64,000 nt of DNA, from sequence record ON528734; one strand, 5' to 3'. The stretch is from Shigella phage ESh24. The notes under the pieces were generated by a model. That model saw only the letters and a program-made list of their open reading frames with translations, searched no databases and was not told where the DNA came from. The position numbers and the translations under genes were made by a program. Numbering within the stretch: position 1 is the first letter of the stretch; each line of letters starts with the position of its first letter. This document shows, piece by piece, positions 1-54,230 of this stretch.

Positions 1-1
1 A

Positions 2-631
2 TACGAAGCACTAGTTAAAAATAAAGTGTTCTATTTCAGAAATTTTGTATCTACTTCTTTAACTCCTATCATTTTTGGACGTTTTGGAATCACACATGCT
101 GGTATTGGTCTTTTAGAACCAGAAGCTCGCAATGAATTAACAGTTGATAAAAATGAAGAAGGAATAACTATTAATCCAAACGAAATAAGAGCGTATAAAG
201 AAAATCCTGAATACGTTAAAGTTCAAATAGGATGGGCAATTGATGGAGCTCATAAAGTTAATGTTGTATATCCAGGAAGTCTCGGAATAGCAACAGAAGC
301 TGAAGTTATTCTACCGCGTGGATTGATGGTCAAAGTTAATAAAATAACTGATGCTTCTAATAATGACGGAACAACATCTAATAATACAAAACTCATTCAA
401 GCTGAAGTTATGACTACGGAAGAACTCACCGAATCGGTAATTTATGACGGCGACCGTCTAATGGAAACCGGCGAAGTAGTTGCAATGACAGGTGATATTG
501 AAATAGAAGACAGAGTTGACTTTGCATCATTTGTTTCATCAAATGTTAAACAGAAAGTAGAATCATCTCTTGGAATTATTGCGTCTTGCATAGATATTAC
601 AAACATGCCCTACAAGTTCGTTCAAGGATAA
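2..631 (+). CDS. Alt-like ADP-ribosyltransferase paralog, 3' portion (frame open to window start)
   Basis: Frame is open from position 2 to stop at 631. Product aligns with the Alt C-terminal region (FYFRNFVSTSL, SEAEVILPRG, DGDRLMETGEV versus FYFKNFVSTSL, SEAEVILPRG, DGDHLMETGEV in the next ORF). Confidence 0.6.
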   Translation, partial: YEALVKNKVFYFRNFVSTSLTPIIFGRFGITHAGIGLLEPEARNELTVDKNEEGITINPNEIRAYKENPEYVKVQIGWAIDGAHKVNVVYPGSLGIATEAEVILPRGLMVKVNKITDASNNDGTTSNNTKLIQAEVMTTEELTESVIYDGDRLMETGEVVAMTGDIEIEDRVDFASFVSSNVKQKVESSLGIIASCIDITNMPYKFVQG

Positions 632-634
632 ATC

Positions 635-2692
635 ATGGAACTTATTACAGAATTATTTGACGGCGCTTCGGCGCCGGTTGTTAACTTAAATCCTAAGCAT
701 AAAATACCTCAAATTTTTGCTATTCAAGCCGGTGAAGAAAGCGTTCTCCCCGGATTTAGATTTTGTACATACACCTCTGGCGGTGATACGAATAAAAACG
801 TTAAGCCAGGCGACAAAATGATGCATATCGTAATGATAGGTGTTAATGAGAAATTATCGTTAGTTAAGCTTAAAAACTTGGGTGGAAATCCAATTGGTGT
901 CATTAATGCGGTTTTTGATACTGCTCTTCAAACAATGAAACAGTATAAAATTGATGCATGCCTATTCCGCGTACTAAAAAGTAAAACAAATGGCGCAGCC
1001 CGTCAAATGCAAGTTATTGCTGACCGTTTAGTACGTACTAAAGGAGCAGGTCGATATGTTCTTTTAAAGGAAATCTGGGACTATGATAAGAAATATGCAT
1101 ATATTATGGTTTACCGTAAAAATGCCAATTTAGAAGACATTCCAGGTGTACCTCCTATTTCAACTGAGTTATTCACAAAAGTTGAATCAAAGGTTGGTGA
1201 TGTTTATGTAGACGTTAAAACAGGAAATGCTGTTCCTAAAACTGTCGCTGTTGCTGCTTCTATTGCTTTAGAAAATGATAAGCGCACGGATCAAGCTGTT
1301 ATTCAGAAAACTAAAATTAGTCGTCGATTAGCAGCACAAGCTCAATATTCTACTGTTGATGCTTCACTTCAGGGTGATAGCTTCGCTGCTAAGAAATATC
1401 AAGAGTTTGAATCTAAAGTTCCGGTATATAAAGCAGAAGGACCAATGAACTCTGGCGTTATTCAGATTGGTTCAAACTTCGGCAAAGGAGCTATCGGTGG
1501 TATGAGAAGTGCTTCTCGTTTTAAATCTAGCGATTATGAACTAGAAAACTTCCGAAATCATATTGCATTAGCCCATGCACGTTTACGTGATCCATCCATC
1601 AAGTTGCAGAGCGATATATCGTATCAAGGTTCTCAAGAATATTTAAAAAATAAAGAATTCTTTGATTATAAAACTGATAAAATTTTAAGCGATCTTGCCG
1701 ATATTAATATTTCTAACAGCTTTGATGTTATTAAGAAAATTATCAATGATTTGGTTAAAGGTTCTAAAGCTACGCCAGATGAAAAGACAGCTATTATTCA
1801 ATTTGTAATGAATGGCATTTATAAATTGATTAATGAATCTGCTGCCCAGGCATATGAATATGCAAGTACTGAAGTAACTCCAAAAGGATTAACTCAAGCT
1901 GAATCTGATGTAATTGAAGATTATTGTGCAGATTCATATGTTGAAATGAACTCATTCCTTTTGGGTAAACCAGATTCTACCCGTGAAGAATATATGGAAC
2001 GAGCTATTAAACATATTGAGACGCTTGATTCTGCATTCGCTAAAGGTTCAGTTCTTCCTCCAGGAACTACGCTTTATCGTGGACAAGAAGTTACCTTTAA
2101 AACTTTGCGTCATAACATTGAAAACAAAATGTTCTATTTCAAGAACTTCGTATCCACATCGCTTAAACCAAATATCTTCGGTGAGCATGGTAAAAACTAT
2201 ATGGCTCTAGATGATTCCGGTGCAGTATTTTCTGGCGAAGGAGAAGGTTCTGTTGATGCAGAAGATTTGATGCATATGGGTAGTCATTCTACATATGCTA
2301 ATGAAGATGCTGAAACTAGCGTGGGTATGGTAATTAAAGGAGCTGAGCGAATTAAAGTTATCGTTCCGGGTCATTTATCAGGATTTCCATCAGAAGCTGA
2401 AGTTATTCTACCGCGTGGAATTTTACTGAAGATTAATAAAGTAAGTACTTACTTTATGAAAGAAACTGCTTATAACAAGTATCTAATCGAAGGTACAATC
2501 GTTCCTCCTTCTGAACAATTAGAGGAATCAGTATATGATGGCGACCATCTAATGGAAACTGGTGAAGTTCGTCCAATGACTGGATTTAATCAATTCCTTG
2601 TAGAAGAATCAAAAGAAGAGGAAAACGAAGTTTCTCAAATCTTAGCTTCTTTGGTTAACATTAACGGAATGTCTAAAAAGTTCAAAATGTAG
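635..2692 (+). CDS. alt: ADP-ribosyltransferase Alt (capsid-packaged)
   Basis: 685 aa ORF adjacent to gene 54; STS and E-x-E type ART motifs near the C-terminus; length and position match T4 Alt. Confidence 0.85.
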   Translation: MELITELFDGASAPVVNLNPKHKIPQIFAIQAGEESVLPGFRFCTYTSGGDTNKNVKPGDKMMHIVMIGVNEKLSLVKLKNLGGNPIGVINAVFDTALQTMKQYKIDACLFRVLKSKTNGAARQMQVIADRLVRTKGAGRYVLLKEIWDYDKKYAYIMVYRKNANLEDIPGVPPISTELFTKVESKVGDVYVDVKTGNAVPKTVAVAASIALENDKRTDQAVIQKTKISRRLAAQAQYSTVDASLQGDSFAAKKYQEFESKVPVYKAEGPMNSGVIQIGSNFGKGAIGGMRSASRFKSSDYELENFRNHIALAHARLRDPSIKLQSDISYQGSQEYLKNKEFFDYKTDKILSDLADINISNSFDVIKKIINDLVKGSKATPDEKTAIIQFVMNGIYKLINESAAQAYEYASTEVTPKGLTQAESDVIEDYCADSYVEMNSFLLGKPDSTREEYMERAIKHIETLDSAFAKGSVLPPGTTLYRGQEVTFKTLRHNIENKMFYFKNFVSTSLKPNIFGEHGKNYMALDDSGAVFSGEGEGSVDAEDLMHMGSHSTYANEDAETSVGMVIKGAERIKVIVPGHLSGFPSEAEVILPRGILLKINKVSTYFMKETAYNKYLIEGTIVPPSEQLEESVYDGDHLMETGEVRPMTGFNQFLVEESKEEENEVSQILASLVNINGMSKKFKM

Positions 2693-2721
2693 TTTACAAG
2701 TCCCTCGTGTTGTGTTATAGT
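2692..2721 (+). promoter_or_regulatory. T4 early-type promoter (GTTTAC -35, 18 bp spacer, TATAGT -10)
   Basis: GTTTAC at 2692-2697 and TATAGT at 2716-2721, upstream of the 2753 ORF. Confidence 0.45.
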
Positions 2722-2752
2722 AGTCTTACTGACATAACATGAGGAACACAAA

Positions 2753-3043
2753 ATGAAATCTTCTCTGCGCTTTTTAGGTCAAGAACTTGTAGTTGAAGGC
2801 GTTATTCCTGCTGATAATGCTTTTAATGAAGCAGTTTATGATGAATTTATCAAAATTTTTGGAACAGATAAAAAGTTCGGAATTTTTCCTTCTGAAAATT
2901 TTTCAAAGCCAGAACAGACTGAAAGTATTTTTCAGGGTGTAGTAACAGGTAAATTTGAGTCAGAAGCTCCGGTAAAAATTGAAGTTTATATTGAAGACAG
3001 TTTAGTTGCTTCAGTTGCTGCTTTTATTTCATTCCGTAAATAA
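2753..3043 (+). CDS. hypothetical early protein (96 aa) between alt and gene 54
   Basis: ORF with its own early-type promoter, followed by a strong hairpin terminator. Confidence 0.55.
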   Translation: MKSSLRFLGQELVVEGVIPADNAFNEAVYDEFIKIFGTDKKFGIFPSENFSKPEQTESIFQGVVTGKFESEAPVKIEVYIEDSLVASVAAFISFRK

Positions 3044-3049
3044 AAATAT

Positions 3050-3067
3050 GGGGACCTTTCGGTCCCC
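3050..3067. terminator. bidirectional stem-loop terminator (GGGGACC-TTTC-GGTCCCC)
   Basis: Perfect 7 bp GC-rich stem between convergent ORF 2753..3043 (+) and gene 54 (-), with a T-rich flank. Confidence 0.7.
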
Positions 3068-3071
3068 ATTG

Positions 3072-4037
3072 TTATATTGCTCCTAATATTTTACTCTGCG
3101 AATTGACAATCCCTGTCATAGTATTAATGTTTGAAATGCTTCCTGCAGTTCCCCCTAATCTACTAAGTCGTGAAAGCGAATTAGATAGTCCAGTAACACC
3201 TCCACTATTTCCGAGAACGCTTTGAATACCATTTATAGCAGCAGATTCAAGCCATTCAAGCGCAGCTTGCCTATCAACTGCTCCAGCCTGCATCACTCTA
3301 TACGCAAAAGTAACGTCAAATGTAGTTATTTGGTTATCTCCATCATATGATAACTCAGGAGCGCTCACTGACACCGGAATGCATCCAGTGAACATCACCG
3401 CAGTATGTGGTAATCCATTGCGAGAATGAAGATTAACCTGAATATCTGCCTCGACATCTTGTGGCAAAGCTCGTAATCCAGTTACTGGGTCTTGAACAGC
3501 GTTAACCCAGTCTTGCATCGCACGATAATTACATGCTTCTGAATCCATTCTAAATGAAATAACCAAAGGGTCTAATTCTCTCCCAGTTATACGAATATTA
3601 GGAGAATTATAGTTCCAGTCAGTTTCATAGGATAATCTATTCTCTGGCATTTTTACAGAATATATCATCAATCCAGATGAGTTATATGCCATGTTAAAGA
3701 AGTCAATTAAATATGTACCAACTGTAAACGAGCCTAATAAACTTTGAACTGTACGTTGACTCATGGCACCAATAAGATATTTACTAACCCCTGATTTTCT
3801 TATCAGTTTTTGTGTGCCAGCTGTAATTAGCGTGGTAATTCCCTGATTAATATCACCTTGAGTCAATCCTAACCAATCTGAATTTAGACCCAAGTTATTA
3901 TAAGAAAAGTTGCTAATTGAACTTATCAACGAAGAGCTTTTAGTTGATGGAGTTGTCGCAAAAACGCAGCTAAACATATTATTACGTTGGAAATCTGCGT
4001 TTATTGCTTGATTATTAAATTCCTCTAAAGAATACAT
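3072..4037 (-). CDS. 54: baseplate tail tube initiator gp54
   Basis: 321 aa; position and length match T4 gp54 in the 54-48-29 block. Confidence 0.85.
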   Translation of the reverse strand: MYSLEEFNNQAINADFQRNNMFSCVFATTPSTKSSSLISSISNFSYNNLGLNSDWLGLTQGDINQGITTLITAGTQKLIRKSGVSKYLIGAMSQRTVQSLLGSFTVGTYLIDFFNMAYNSSGLMIYSVKMPENRLSYETDWNYNSPNIRITGRELDPLVISFRMDSEACNYRAMQDWVNAVQDPVTGLRALPQDVEADIQVNLHSRNGLPHTAVMFTGCIPVSVSAPELSYDGDNQITTFDVTFAYRVMQAGAVDRQAALEWLESAAINGIQSVLGNSGGVTGLSNSLSRLSRLGGTAGSISNINTMTGIVNSQSKILGAI

Positions 4038-5131
4038 TAAAAAGTCCCCGCATATAAAGAAGCACGGTTTAACGTGATAATTTCTCTCATAGTAATCTCG
4101 AGAGTAAATGTACTAGGGAGGTTTGGAGCAATAGCTAATCCGTTAAAGTTACCGTTAGGTGTTTTATCAAATCTAATGCTTTGTATTTGGCATGGACCAA
4201 ATATTTCCGTTTTTCCATCAAACTTAGATGTTGCACCAAAGTTTTTCACCATCCAAATTGTCGGGTTTGAAACTACTAGAACGTTAGTTAAACTCGATGT
4301 CATTTTCTCAAATAGTGTTTTATTTTTAGCTGCGTCTTCCGGAGATAAAGGTTCAATTAATGTAGAACGATACCAGTCATCTAAATACCCCTTTATTTCA
4401 GCAGCATATTGAGATTTACCCGTTTCACCATAAGAAAAATAGTTAAAATATTGATAGATATTAATGATAGCCATTAAATCTTCTGTTGAGCGTGGAGTCA
4501 AATCCCATGTAAACACTTTAGTTCTATTTTCAGCACCACCGTACATACTTCTGGCTGTCGTATAAATCTGTTCATTATTATCAGCCATTATACCTTGTGT
4601 TATACTTTCCAGTGCCCCAAATACTGCGGTTGAAGCAATATTACTTAACACACCAGTAGCAGTACCTCCGCCTCTACTGATAAGGCTTTCTTGAACATCA
4701 TTAAATCTATGTGATGATGTGTCAACATCAGATTTAGATCTCGGTAAAAGAATGTTTGCGACAGGAGCTTTACTTATTGTTCCTGAATTATTATTTGATA
4801 TTAATCCATTTGATAGTTTTGATACTGTACTACTAATAGTGTTTCTAGCTGTACTCAAAATACCTGAAGACGCAGAAGAGTAGTTAGATCTCATCGATCT
4901 AAGACTTCCAGAATCCCTAGATGACATATTGTATGCAGTAAATAATAATCCATTCTTATATAGATCTGTTACCTGGAAGTCCCCTGTAGTGTCATTACCA
5001 CTAGCACGCCCAGTTGGAAACTGGGCTGTGTATGTTTTAGTTACTACTTCTGATTTAGTGCTCTGTCCAGCTGAAATTTTCTCACCGGACTTTTTAATTA
5101 AATCAGTAGTTATTTCTTTAACAATTGCCAT
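4037..5131 (-). CDS. 48: baseplate tail tube cap gp48
   Basis: 364 aa; T4 gp48 length and position. Confidence 0.85.
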   Translation of the reverse strand: MAIVKEITTDLIKKSGEKISAGQSTKSEVVTKTYTAQFPTGRASGNDTTGDFQVTDLYKNGLLFTAYNMSSRDSGSLRSMRSNYSSASSGILSTARNTISSTVSKLSNGLISNNNSGTISKAPVANILLPRSKSDVDTSSHRFNDVQESLISRGGGTATGVLSNIASTAVFGALESITQGIMADNNEQIYTTARSMYGGAENRTKVFTWDLTPRSTEDLMAIINIYQYFNYFSYGETGKSQYAAEIKGYLDDWYRSTLIEPLSPEDAAKNKTLFEKMTSSLTNVLVVSNPTIWMVKNFGATSKFDGKTEIFGPCQIQSIRFDKTPNGNFNGLAIAPNLPSTFTLEITMREIITLNRASLYAGTF

Positions 5132-5139
5132 ATTATTCC

Positions 5140-6912
5140 TTAATTAACTCCAGTCGCATCAAATACACCAGGAGCAGTTGTGCTTGTGACAGGTGTCATA
5201 TTATGAACGACAGTATTTTTCTTAATAACATTATTAGTATTATTGATTGAAGGAGATGCTTGCTGAACAGGAGCTTGCTGTGCTTTGTTCTTTTCAATAA
5301 CCTGGACCTGTTTCGCTTCTGGCGATTTAGCAGAAGTTTCAGGTTTGGCATTAGGCTGATTTTTCTTGAGCTCTTGATAAGTAGCATCAATTTTAGAAAA
5401 TCTAGCAGCAAGTTCTTTTTTAACTGCCGGTGAATTATTTAAATCCGGGTCATCCATCCGTTTTTTAAGGTCTTCATAGGCAGATTCAACTGATTTAACC
5501 GTTGAGTCTTTACTCATATCAGCTGAATCAGCATATTTTTCAAAGCGAATCATCGCAGCACGAGCTTCATTAGCCTTCATTAAAGCATTTTTTCTTTCTT
5601 CAGGTGAAAGTTGCTTTAATTTTTCTTCTTCTGCTGCACGTTCTTCGTCGGTAGTTAGTGCTTCTTTATTATCAACACCGCGAATCCAATTAGATGCGCG
5701 AGTTTTCCAGTTCGCAATCTTGTCTAATCCTTTTGCTATCGGACCAAGGTCTCCATTCATTCTTTTATCTTGATAATTTGCAACTTTTTCCTGGTCTTCT
5801 TTATTGAGAGATGCTCCAGTAGAATTTTGGAAATTTTCTAGTGCTCTTCCTTCTACTTCGTCAGCAGTATCCTTCATGCCAGGAATGACTCGAAGAATTG
5901 CTGCAGATAATTTAGCCATACCTAATTGAATAAGTTCACCTAAATTAAAAAGAACACTTCCGAGTCCTTCAACAATAGCTGCTGTCAATCCACCCCAATC
6001 TCCCGCTTCCCAAAGTTGTTTAATTTTATCAATAGAATCAAAGATGCTCTGTAATAAAGGACCCCATGTTCCGGTTTCGCTAGAGAATTTAGTAAAATCA
6101 GTATTAAATAAATCCCAGGCTTTTGAAAATTTATCTGACCAGTATTTAAAATGAACCATCAACAGGTCTATTCCAACAACAACAGCCAATATCATTGCAG
6201 TCATTTTAGCAGCTTCAATAGCAGCACTAACGGTGTACTTAAATAACATGCTTGATATTTTATCAGTAATTGAAATGGATTTTTTAAATCCAAAATCAAC
6301 TGTCTTTGTTAATTTATCTAAAGCTTGAGATAATTTTAAGTTAAATGCTTCTTTTTTCTGTTTTTCTTCTGGTGATTCTTGCTTTGGCTCAACTGGCTGA
6401 GGGGTCGGGAAAAAATCAGCATCAGGGTCATTATTAACTGCTTCAGGAGCCGGTAATAAAGGACCCACAGATTCAGCTGTATCATCCTCAACGACTTTAA
6501 CAGGAATAGCGCTTTCAACTGTGGCTAAACTAGTTCCCGTCTGTTGAATTCCAGCTGTCTGAATTTTTTGCTCTAGTAAACTTGTTAATTTATCTAATTT
6601 GCTTCCGAGTGATTCACCGATTTCTTTATTAATATTGTTGCCAATTTCGACAGTTTCAGCAATTAACTCAGAACCGGCAGTAGTATCACTCACTGCGCTT
6701 TCTACGTTACCAATTGCTCCAACTATTTCATTAGATTTTTCTTCGACAGTTTGAGCTATTAATTCAGAGGCAGCTTGAGCATCATCCAATTTCGTAGATA
6801 TATCGTTAAGTCCAGATAAAGTGTTAGAAGCGGATTTAGCCGCTTCCTGTGTTGGTTTATTATCTGAAATAACTTTTCTACGCATCGTTTGCATTTCTTG
6901 TGGCTTTTTCAT
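5140..6912 (-). CDS. 29: tail length tape-measure / baseplate hub protein gp29
   Basis: 590 aa; T4 gp29 length and position. Confidence 0.85.
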   Translation of the reverse strand: MKKPQEMQTMRRKVISDNKPTQEAAKSASNTLSGLNDISTKLDDAQAASELIAQTVEEKSNEIVGAIGNVESAVSDTTAGSELIAETVEIGNNINKEIGESLGSKLDKLTSLLEQKIQTAGIQQTGTSLATVESAIPVKVVEDDTAESVGPLLPAPEAVNNDPDADFFPTPQPVEPKQESPEEKQKKEAFNLKLSQALDKLTKTVDFGFKKSISITDKISSMLFKYTVSAAIEAAKMTAMILAVVVGIDLLMVHFKYWSDKFSKAWDLFNTDFTKFSSETGTWGPLLQSIFDSIDKIKQLWEAGDWGGLTAAIVEGLGSVLFNLGELIQLGMAKLSAAILRVIPGMKDTADEVEGRALENFQNSTGASLNKEDQEKVANYQDKRMNGDLGPIAKGLDKIANWKTRASNWIRGVDNKEALTTDEERAAEEEKLKQLSPEERKNALMKANEARAAMIRFEKYADSADMSKDSTVKSVESAYEDLKKRMDDPDLNNSPAVKKELAARFSKIDATYQELKKNQPNAKPETSAKSPEAKQVQVIEKNKAQQAPVQQASPSINNTNNVIKKNTVVHNMTPVTSTTAPGVFDATGVN

Positions 6913-52116: not shown

Positions 52117-52189
52117 TGGGAATTAGCCAAGTTGGTAAGGCATAGCACTTTGACTGCTAGATGCAAAGGTTCGAGTCCTTTATTCCCAG
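52117..52189 (+). tRNA. tRNA-Gln (anticodon UUG)
   Basis: Acceptor TGGGAAT/ATTCCCA, anticodon loop CTTTGAC, T-arm GGTTCGAGTCC. Confidence 0.8.
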
Positions 52190-52190
52190 C

Positions 52191-52277
52191 GCGAGAATGG
52201 TCAAATTGGTAAAGGCACAGCACTTAAAATGCTGCGGAATGATTTCCTTGTGGGTTCGAGTCCCACTTCTCGCACCA
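52191..52277 (+). tRNA. tRNA-Leu (anticodon UAA), type II long variable arm
   Basis: Acceptor GCGAGAA/TTCTCGC, loop CTTAAAA, encoded CCA. Confidence 0.8.
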
Positions 52278-52282
52278 AATTT

Positions 52283-52356
<74 letters not shown>

Positions 52357-52402
52357 ATTTATGACTCGTCGTGAGACGCTCAGTTCTTTATTAGGGACTG
52401 AT

Positions 52403-53011
52403 ATGCATTTTTATCTTTATAAAATAACAAATAAAATTAATAATAAAATTTATATTGGTGTGCATTCTACCGAAAATTTAGATGATGGATATATGGGTTC
52501 TGGTAAATTATTAAAAAGAGCCCAAGATAAATATGGTATAGAAAATTTTTCTAAAGAAATATTAGAGTATTTTGACGATAAAGAATCTATGCTTGAAGCC
52601 GAGAAAAATATTGTCACAGAAGAGTTTTTAAATAGACCAGATGTGTATAATTTAAAACTTGGAGGTGAAGGTGGATGGGATCATATAAATAATTATCCTA
52701 TGACAGATCAGCAACGCGAATTAATTTCATTGGGTGTTAAAAAGGCACATTCTAATGGAAAATTAAAAGGATGGTCTTCAAATGGATTAATGAAGAATGG
52801 CTTTGCTGGTAAAACTCATTCTCAAGAAGCTAAACGTAAAATAGCAAAAGCAAACGAAGCAAAAGTTTCTGTGGATGAAAGAAAAAGAAGAATAGAAATT
52901 TCTAAATTATATGATTTTTCTAAACGTGGCGAATTGTCTAAATATGCTAAGCATATTGGCGTAAGTCATACTCAAGCAAAAAGAATTCTAAATCAAATTA
53001 ACAATATATAA
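52403..53011 (+). CDS. segB: GIY-YIG homing endonuclease (SegB-like) inside the tRNA cluster
   Basis: Start set at MHFYLYKITNKINNKIYIGV (GIY-YIG core; track start 52361 abuts tRNA-Gly with no RBS); basic C-terminal DNA-binding region. Confidence 0.8.
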   Translation: MHFYLYKITNKINNKIYIGVHSTENLDDGYMGSGKLLKRAQDKYGIENFSKEILEYFDDKESMLEAEKNIVTEEFLNRPDVYNLKLGGEGGWDHINNYPMTDQQRELISLGVKKAHSNGKLKGWSSNGLMKNGFAGKTHSQEAKRKIAKANEAKVSVDERKRRIEISKLYDFSKRGELSKYAKHIGVSHTQAKRILNQINNI

Positions 53012-53017
53012 ATATTT

Positions 53018-53107
53018 GGAGGCGTGGCAGAGTGGTTTAATGCACCGGTCTTGAAAATCGGCAGTCGCTCCGGCGACTCATAGGTTCAAATCCTATCGCC
53101 TCCGCCA
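53018..53107 (+). tRNA. tRNA-Ser (anticodon UGA), type II
   Basis: Acceptor GGAGGCG/CGCCTCC, loop CTTGAAA, long variable arm, CCA. Confidence 0.8.
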
Positions 53108-53112
53108 GTTTT

Positions 53113-53188
53113 GCTGATTTAGCTTAGTAGGTAGAGCAACTCACTTGTAATGAGAAGGTCGGCGGTTCGATTCCGTCAATCAGCACCA
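53113..53188 (+). tRNA. tRNA-Thr (anticodon UGU)
   Basis: Full cloverleaf traced by hand (acceptor GCTGATT/AATCAGC, loop CTTGTAA). Confidence 0.8.
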
Positions 53189-53189
53189 A

Positions 53190-53264
53190 GGCCCTGTAGC
53201 TGGAAGGTTCAAGCAAGCGACTCATAATCGCCAGATGGTGGTTCAATTCCACCCAGGGCCACCA
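53190..53264 (+). tRNA. tRNA with CAU anticodon, Ile2 (lysidine) type
   Basis: Loop CTCATAA; anticodon arm GCGACTCATAATCGC resembles the bacterial ileX type rather than Met. Confidence 0.7.
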
Positions 53265-53276
53265 AATTATGAATTA

Positions 53277-53363
53277 GGGGAGTTATCCCGTAGAGGTAGC
53301 GGTGTGGACTGTAAATCCATTGTCATTGCGACTCGGGTGGTTCGACTCCATCACTCCCCACCA
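53277..53363 (+). tRNA. tRNA-Tyr (anticodon GUA), type II
   Basis: Acceptor GGGGAGT/ACTCCCC, loop CTGTAAA, long variable arm. Confidence 0.7.
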
Positions 53364-53367
53364 ATTT

Positions 53368-53443
53368 GGATGTGTAGCTCAATGGCAGAGCGATCGCCTG
53401 TTAAGCGATTGGTTATAGGTTCGAATCCTATCACGTCCGCCAA
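53368..53443 (+). tRNA. tRNA-Asn (anticodon GUU)
   Basis: Acceptor GGATGTG/CACGTCC, loop CTGTTAA. Confidence 0.7.
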
Positions 53444-53446
53444 ATA

Positions 53447-53522
53447 CGAGGCATAGCTCAGAAGGAAGAGCAAGGACCTTCTAAGTCCTAGGTCGTAGGT
53501 TCGATCCCTACTGCCTCGACCA
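53447..53522 (+). tRNA. tRNA-Arg (anticodon UCU)
   Basis: Full cloverleaf traced by hand; loop CTTCTAA; CCA encoded. Confidence 0.8.
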
Positions 53523-53889: not shown

Positions 53890-54230
53890 GAAACCGGGTC
53901 GCTACCGGTAAGTCGTCGGACTGATGTTCCCTGGGTAAGGAATCGTGTTAATAAATCTTTATGATTTGTTGATGCCCTCTTACATCACAGCAGAAACGGC
54001 GCACCGAATTATCGATTCGAGGAAATATCTTTGCCGTAAGCCGAGTAGCGTTTTTGACGGAACGTTCGGATATGGTCGAGATATGGCCTTTTAAAAAAAT
54101 ATTGAGTAGCGTCAACTGCTTAATAACCGGGTTCGAATCCCGGCGTTTCGTACAAACACTTGCCTTAGCAGGTGGAACCCCGACAAGGTTGCCGCAAGGC
54201 TTAGCCCCGACCGAAAGGTTGGGGCTTTTT
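53890..54230 (+). ncRNA. candidate small stable RNA region (T-arm-like hairpin and strong terminator)
   Basis: No convincing ORF; CCGGGTTCGAATCCCGG T-arm-like element at about 54124-54142; ends with a 10 bp GC stem (AGCCCCGACC-GAAA-GGTTGGGGCT) plus TTTTT at 54203-54230. Confidence 0.35.

Follow-up and report, generated by a model that had tools for sequence, protein, structure and literature searches.

Two Alt-family ADP-ribosyltransferase genes in tandem in Shigella phage ESh24, and their probable remnant and chimeric forms in related phages

Introduction

What does a T-even phage hold at its alt locus, one ADP-ribosyltransferase (ART) gene or two, and if there are two, which of them is alt and what might the other be doing? 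The question is raised by the first 2.7 kb of a 64,000 nt stretch of Shigella phage ESh24 (record ON528734; hereafter the window, whose positions serve as coordinates throughout, on the plus strand unless stated), where an open reading frame (ORF) that enters from the left edge is followed directly by a complete one of the same family. In T4 the enzyme Alt is a late protein that is present in about 40 copies in the prohead core, loses an N-terminal peptide to gp21 and is injected along with the DNA. On one RNA polymerase alpha subunit it mono-ADP-ribosylates Arg265, and it modifies other host proteins more weakly, with the effect that transcription from certain early promoters about doubles (PMC2988021, PMC9958956).

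It is highly probable, in our judgement, that the left edge of the window falls within the alt locus of a Tequatrovirus (T4-like phage) in its two-gene form, and that the second gene is a full-length, ancient paralog of alt with a strongly diverged linker and catalytic domain. The gene pair itself is not novel, being already known at the level of annotation in hundreds of records: the existing labels include 'Alt-like RNA polymerase ADP-ribosyltransferase (x2)' in RefSeq, 'alt_1/alt_2' in vB_SsoM_113 and 'alt/alt.-2' in RB32. What we add is modest, namely the assignment of the two ORFs, the deletion that lies behind the T4 genes alt.-1 and alt.-2, a rough census of the states of the locus, and the recurrent chimeras of alt with the second paralog.

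Results

Two Alt-family genes at the start of the window

The two ORFs and their catalytic codons are listed here; A1 and A2 denote alignments, A2 comprising 16 sequences from both paralog classes and T4 Alt.

2..631, plus strand: 3' end of the alt ortholog, RB32-type allele, last 209 codons and TAA (629-631); frame 2 is open from window base 2
50..58, plus strand: S-T-S motif codons (FVSTSL) of the upstream ART, read from the sequence; invariant column in A1
296..304, plus strand: E-x-E catalytic motif codons (E-A-E) of the upstream ART, read from the sequence; invariant columns in A1
635..2692, plus strand: second Alt paralog, complete, 685 aa, with ATG at 635; the same as RB32 'alt.-2' (YP_803136), 99.3% identity
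2078..2080, plus strand: codon of the catalytic Arg482 (TLYRGQ) of the second paralog; invariant in A2
2153..2161, plus strand: S507-T508-S509 codons of the second paralog; S507 and S509 invariant in A2
2393..2401, plus strand: E587-A-E589 (ExE) codons of the second paralog; E587 and E589 invariant in A2

An original prediction, made from the letters and translations of this DNA, had read the two ORFs as tandem Alt-family ART paralogs and had proposed a comparison of their catalytic domains. When aligned, the upstream partial ORF and the downstream protein are 36% identical over 207 aa (BLASTP, E = 5.6e-32), a similarity far beyond chance. Both pass the 23.4-bit cut-off of Pfam PF03496 (ADPrib_exo_Tox), with 56 bits (E = 4.4e-15) upstream and 71.9 bits (E = 6e-20) downstream, and both match phrog_802 ('Alt-like RNA polymerase ADP-ribosyltransferase'), the downstream protein along residues 1-685 (E = 2.5e-256) and the upstream one at profile positions 485-674 (E = 4.9e-75), only its C-terminal part being within the window. 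The pair PF26846 (Tevenvirinae_ADPRT) and PF03496 is precomputed for a protein 98% identical to the downstream one and for both genes of a two-gene relative locus; NCBIfam gave no family for either protein. The prediction of a tandem pair is borne out by these matches and by the motifs that both copies keep.

As far as they are visible both ORFs are intact, with the STS and ExE motifs in each. The upstream one reads YEALVKNKVFYFRNFVSTSL...TEAEVILPRG...DGDRLMETGEV and ends with NMPYKFVQG and the stop codon, and the downstream protein starts with MELITELFD and contains FYFKNFVSTSL, SEAEVILPRG and DGDHLMETGEV. Two of the motifs on which the tandem reading had been based, FYF(R/K)NFVSTSL and DGD(R/H)LMETGEV, are found in both copies, including the ORF at the window start, but the third, SEAEVILPRG, is correct for the downstream copy only, since the upstream copy has TEAEV. 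In A2 the residues R482, S507, S509, E587 and E589 are invariant in 16 of 16 sequences, T4 Alt included. The GTG 'start' of the upstream ORF at position 26 is an artefact of the window edge; the true start and the catalytic Arg codon of this gene lie 5' of the window. In RB32 alt that Arg is read as VYRAQ, and as the visible part is 99% identical to the RB32 gene, the upstream copy would by inference have it too.

That the upstream ORF might be a truncated pseudogene is very unlikely on comparison with its relatives, because phages vb_GEC_SH_GT and ESh31, in which the last 209 residues are 100% identical, have an intact alt of 697 codons, and because the ratio of nonsynonymous to synonymous substitution rates (dN/dS) against relatives is 0-0.06 over the visible part, with differences that are almost all synonymous. 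Compared with RB32, ESh28, GT and ESh31, the second paralog has a ratio of 0.02-0.05 over its whole length and of 0-0.045 within the catalytic domain; against a 75%-identical homolog the ratio is 0.13. Purifying selection on both genes is strong.

Which of the two genes is alt

The first 2.7 kb of the window are 97-98% identical in nucleotides to Shigella phage ESh28, RB3, RB32 and hundreds more Tequatrovirus records (megablast), and the records of these three phages annotate both genes of the locus. In RB32 the order is ligase (30), alt.1, alt (697 aa), 'alt.-2' (685 aa), alt.-3 and 54; in T4 it is 30, alt.1, alt (682 aa), alt.-1 (61 aa), alt.-2 (67 aa), alt.-3 and 54. The position between DNA ligase/alt.1 and alt.-3/gene 54 is common to RB32, ESh28, G4507 and T4, and the window agrees for its visible part, with the 3' end of alt, the second paralog and alt.-3, followed by genes 54, 48, 29, 28 and 27 on the minus strand. 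The right flank is conserved:

2753..3043, plus strand: alt.-3 (DUF5498, 96 aa; Pfam PF17602, E = 1.4e-64), 100% identical to T4 Alt.-3

The upstream ORF is 99% identical in amino acids to RB32 alt (YP_803137, 697 aa) and 70% identical to residues 487-682 of T4 Alt, compared to only 41% for the second paralog (BLASTP). As it is the closer of the two to T4 Alt, and as its gene follows alt.1 in relatives, we assign the cut fragment to alt and the complete gene to the second paralog, so that by sequence and position the labels of the original prediction are reversed. Its statement that the first ORF is followed by full-length alt stands in so far as a complete Alt-family gene of 685 codons begins 3 nt on, but this gene is not the alt ortholog. 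In T4 its counterparts are alt.-1 and alt.-2, downstream of T4 alt, whose products match residues 1-56 and 62-116 of the second paralog at 95% and 96% identity (BLASTP).

The two paralogs differ unevenly along their length. The second has a Tevenvirinae_ADPRT N-terminal domain (residues ~1-240), a helical linker (~240-470), an R-S-ExE ART domain (~416-620) and a conserved tail, and while it matches Alt at 56-76% identity in the N-terminal domain, identity in 50-column windows is 17-42% in the catalytic domain and 6-20% in the linker, and the stretch from STS to ExE is essentially unalignable.

One short segment behaves differently. The longest exact identity between the two genes is the 25 nt CAGAAGCTGAAGTTATTCTACCGCG (window 2391-2415 and 294-318), which codes for EAEVILPR around ExE and sits in DNA that is otherwise about 40% identical, with synonymous sites identical too. 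It could be a small gene-conversion tract or reflect a constraint at the nucleotide level.

The T4 genes alt.-1 and alt.-2 as a remnant

The T4 DNA that spans the end of alt through alt.-3 matches the window in two pieces, 420-982 and 2673-2773, which overlap on the nine bases CTAAAAAGT (BLASTN). Three sites in the window define the difference from T4:

794..798, plus strand: run of five A, four in T4; the resulting frameshift divides alt.-1 from alt.-2 in the T4 remnant (BLASTN, T4 against window)
974..982, plus strand: left copy of the 9-bp direct repeat CTAAAAAGT, left end of the T4 deletion (BLASTN, T4 against window)
2673..2681, plus strand: right copy of the repeat, right end of the T4 deletion (BLASTN, T4 against window)

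As the alignment overlaps on the repeat at both window sites, the T4 arrangement is best explained by a 1699-bp deletion between the repeats in a second gene that was once full-length; together with the 1-nt frameshift this makes alt.-1 and alt.-2 the remnant of the second paralog. The read-through tail of T4 Alt.-2, SKCSLQVPRVVL up to its stop, is the out-of-frame translation of window 2682-2720. The two T4 genes match phrog_23015 and phrog_15247 and are without the catalytic domain. The region that corresponds to the junction lies at 123065-123450 of the T4 record.

Two other histories are given in sequence records. The T4 record states that alt.-1 and alt.-2 'reflect an old duplication of the first part of gene alt', and the RB32 record describes an 'apparent insertion in alt.-2; similar to alt', which is the opposite polarity. 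A full-length duplicate that suffered a deletion between its CTAAAAAGT repeats is more parsimonious than either, and the fact that these repeats flank the junction argues for a deletion in the T4 lineage. The contiguous T4-type junction is present in 91 of 498 matching phage records, many of them independent isolates, so that the deletion is a natural polymorphism and not a laboratory accident.

States of the locus across phages

Considering the phage records together, the locus is found in three states. For the two-gene state, 402 phage records match the catalytic domain of the second paralog (window 1835-2689) at 95% identity or more; between 60 and 95% there is no phage record, the next being the JS98-type 'altb' at about 52%. 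The T4-type deletion, in the 91 records given above, is the second state, and both genes are retained in about 80% of Tequatrovirus records. In the third state a single chimeric gene of 684-686 codons lies between alt.1 and alt.-3, its 5' part from alt and the remainder, linker and ART domain, from the second paralog. This is seen in ECML-134, in Yersinia phage PST (at 1501-3561 of both extracted loci) and in four metagenomic contigs.

The chimeras have at least five different breakpoints, near nt 150, 300, 460, 540 and 660, in a region where the paralogs are 57-78% identical in nucleotides. The comparison indicates that they are recurrent products of unequal crossover within the conserved N-terminal domain. 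Their ART domain is still under purifying selection, and as the N-terminal domain has been exchanged in nature while the remainder has stayed constrained, the sequences suggest that the N-terminal domains of alt and the second paralog are interchangeable. We also considered whether the chimeras might be a collapse of the tandem repeat during assembly, which is unlikely: the longest exact match between the paralogs is 25 nt, with at most 19 nt near the breakpoints, and the state is also found in the complete isolate genomes ECML-134 and PST.

The upstream gene varies as well. By the 209 residues visible here, alt falls into classes of at least 95% identity (315 records), 80-90% (27 records) and 60-80% (191 records, the T4 class). 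T4 Alt and RB32-type Alt (the RB32 gene is 3538-5631 of the extracted RB32 locus) are almost 100% identical in the first 240 residues and 90-97% in the last ~90, but only 24-62% in the central linker and catalytic region, and alt is by this comparison evidently a mosaic gene. In phage G4507 an intact second gene accompanies a T4-type alt; the second gene and the alleles of alt therefore reassort.

Predicted structure of the second paralog

A sequence search of the second paralog against the PDB (phmmer) gave no match at E <= 0.01, and the relationship to the ART fold comes from its predicted structure. The AF2 model (mean pLDDT 73, pTM 0.67) consists of a mixed alpha/beta N-terminal domain (~1-195), a long helical region (~200-470) and a beta-rich C-terminal domain. 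When this model is compared with the PDB by Foldseek, the top 50 matches listed are all ADP-ribosylating toxins, the best being Vis (PDB ID: 4xzj; E = 1.3e-6, target TM 0.63), with Certhrax, C3bot, CDTa, iota/CPILE-a and VIP2 among the others. The modelled C-terminal domain thus appears to have the ART fold.

A further segment of the protein is worth noting in its own right. The motif YDGD(H/R)LMETGE is invariant in 16 of 16 members (window 2537-2569 with H in the second paralog, 440-472 with R in alt), and YDGDHLMETGE lies past the ART domain, in a segment predicted to be disordered (pLDDT ~30). Its L-M-E fits the (L/I)-x-E pattern of gp21 sites and may be a signal for C-terminal processing or for packaging. 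For gpAlt a review mentions trimming at the N-terminus only.

Expression signals around the second gene

The gap between alt and the second gene is 3 nt, a spacing equal to that in RB32, and T4 has the identical junction before alt.-1. The short gap suggests co-transcription and possibly coupled translation. The T4 late-promoter motif TATAAATA does not occur in window 1-3200, and a late promoter belonging to the second gene was rejected on this basis; in RB32 the motif lies 24 nt before the alt ATG, just past a hairpin. Other candidate signals in the region are these:

624..628, plus strand: Shine-Dalgarno-like AAGGA in the last codons of alt, with 6 nt between it and the second ATG, read from the sequence
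2693..2721, plus strand: match to a sigma-70/T4-early-like promoter (TTTACA, 17 nt, TG-TATAGT) before alt.-3, a consensus match only
3048..3069, strand not assigned: GC-rich hairpin with a 9-bp stem, terminator-like on both strands, between the convergent alt.-3 and 54; a terminator is annotated there in G4507

The promoter candidate before alt.-3 has 10 of 12 matches and the TG of an extended -10, and promoter-like sites are in total no more numerous in the region than expected from shuffled sequence. Within 2693-2752 an imperfect inverted repeat, CCTCGTGTTGTGTTAT ... ATAACATGAGG, overlaps the GAGG Shine-Dalgarno sequence of alt.-3. T4 keeps the segment just beyond its deletion at 97% identity (3 mismatches in 101 nt).

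Comparison with known systems

T4 Alt (NP_049811), a head-packaged NAD+:arginine mono-ADP-ribosyltransferase, is the positional and sequence ortholog of the upstream ORF, though of a different allele class, with 24-62% identity in the central region and catalytic domain. With the second paralog it has in common the whole architecture, the MELITELFD start, the R/STS/ExE residues and the YDGDHLMETGE tail, but this is a distinct paralog at 41% identity overall, and of the two only T4 Alt has an experimentally known target. A closer case is RB32 'alt.-2' (YP_803136), which is the same gene as the second paralog at the same position (99.3% identity) and without material difference, whereas T4 alt.-1 and alt.-2 (NP_049810, NP_049809) are a deleted and frameshifted remnant set against the full-length duplicate of the window.

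A similar picture emerges in other genera and hosts, where JS98 altb has a catalytic domain 52% identical to that of the second paralog and JS10 Alt is 48% identical to it overall. Nolan et al. 2006 mention the duplication of alt and report a full-length duplicate in 44RR (PMC1524935). JS98/JS10 and 44RR resemble the window in their tandem or duplicated full-length alt genes, but these are much more diverged. The R-S-E toxins of the C3/VIP2/iota/Vis group (PF03496) have the predicted fold and the R, STS and ExE residues in common with the second paralog at only 14-20% sequence identity, and unlike these toxins the phage Alt enzymes have an N-terminal extension of about 450 aa. The toxins are secreted, whereas Alt is delivered from the phage head, which is established for Alt only. 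Small, early-expressed and unpackaged, T4 ModA and ModB are encoded elsewhere and do not have the Tevenvirinae_ADPRT N-terminal domain. They are further R-S-E ARTs of the same phage group and modify host proteins (PMC2988021).

Other features of the window

Far from the alt locus, a tRNA cluster at 52117-53522 holds Gln, Leu, Gly, Ser, Thr, Met/Ile(CAT), Tyr, Asn and Arg and is interrupted by an ORF like a GIY-YIG/NUMOD3 homing endonuclease (52361-53011). The T4 set has Pro and is not known to include Tyr or Asn, so that the set in the window seems to differ from that of T4. A 97-nt 'tRNA-Phe(aaa)' call at 54057-54153 is unsupported by Rfam and probably spurious.

Discussion

Considering the locus as a working system, a single late transcript from a promoter upstream of alt would cover both genes; this is suggested by the 3-nt gap, the lack of TATAAATA in window 1-3200, its presence before alt in RB32 and the hairpin past alt.-3. 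The N-terminal domain that both proteins have in common may then direct them to the prohead core; trimming by the gp21 protease and injection along with the DNA would follow. For the second protein these steps are made plausible by the common MELITELFD start, the 56-76% identity of the N-terminal domains and the natural exchange of these domains; the start contains an I-x-E site, which is the kind of site cut by gp21. ExE is the arginine-specific variant of the catalytic motif (C3-like versus iota/VIP2-like toxins), and its presence predicts arginine specificity for both enzymes. The segment from STS to ExE forms substrate-recognition loops in C3-like toxins. With this segment unalignable and the linker only 6-20% identical, it is a little less than an even bet that the diverged region would give the second enzyme other host targets, and the suggestion in the original prediction that two packaged ARTs could diversify host targets is a reasonable one. 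The fullest form of the proposal, that the second paralog is a separately evolving, head-delivered ART that modifies host proteins spared by T4 Alt, for instance a defence or stress-response factor, we put forward as tentative, its chances being somewhat short of even.

Several points weigh against this proposal. Searches of the literature found no functional, proteomic or target study of the second paralog, and we infer its packaging, injection, activity and targets throughout. The 5' part of the upstream gene is known from relatives only. The confidence of the AF2 model is moderate (pLDDT 73), the variable loops at 516-554 being poorly modelled. Finally, either catalytic domain can be lost in nature, the second in the 91 deletion records and that of alt in the chimeras of ECML-134 and PST, and such reciprocal losses are compatible with partial redundancy, as opposed to distinct essential roles.

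Other explanations of the pair can be weighed against the same data. The downstream gene could be alt itself and the cut ORF an extra paralog, as its 685 aa, near the 682 aa of T4 Alt, and its being the only complete copy in the window would suggest, and in PST the single chimeric gene with the catalytic domain of the second paralog is indeed annotated 'alt'. This is highly improbable, however, given that T4 Alt is 70% identical to the upstream ORF and 41% to the downstream protein, that alt adjoins alt.1 in T4 and RB32, which is the place of the upstream gene, and that the 5' end of the downstream gene is 95-96% identical to alt.-1 and alt.-2, which lie downstream of T4 alt. Nor does the second copy look like a decaying or non-functional duplicate comparable to the remnant in T4. 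In T4 and 90 other records the gene is indeed reduced to a deleted, frameshifted remnant and is thus dispensable in at least some hosts, but here it has an intact 685 codons with all catalytic residues and a dN/dS of 0.02-0.05, 402 records match its ART domain at 95% identity or more, and in ECML-134 and PST it supplies the sole ART domain at the locus. Decay is barely credible in the face of these observations.

A more serious contender is that both enzymes are active and largely redundant, acting for example on RNA polymerase alpha, with the duplication kept for dosage or robustness. The arginine-type ExE signature and the N-terminal domain are shared by both, and reciprocal losses are tolerated in nature, the T4-type deletion removing the second ART and the chimeras the first. 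Simple dosage duplicates should, on the other hand, remain alike or become homogenised through the recombination evidently active at the locus, whereas the catalytic domains are 17-42% identical (50-column windows) and the linkers 6-20%, with the stretch from STS to ExE essentially unalignable, and about 80% of Tequatrovirus records keep both genes. We regard redundancy as rather unlikely, though it deserves to be taken seriously.

We return to a second, separately evolving enzyme and to what it would mean for T-even phages. Nearly all knowledge of injected phage ARTs comes from T4 Alt, and T4 itself has lost most of the second gene; the residual interest of the locus is that an enzyme which is otherwise common, conserved and probably injected is absent from T4. 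For questions of capsid targeting and substrate choice, the gene pair and the chimeras found in nature serve as ready-made domain swaps, and T-even phages are widely used in therapy cocktails and defence-system screens. Should the second enzyme have targets of its own, the T4-based picture of the first minute of T-even infection would be incomplete, and a widespread host-takeover or counter-defence activity of wild T-even phages in that first minute would have been overlooked because the T4 reference strain deleted the gene. The polymorphism of the locus in presence, absence and chimeric forms would then mirror host-specific selection.

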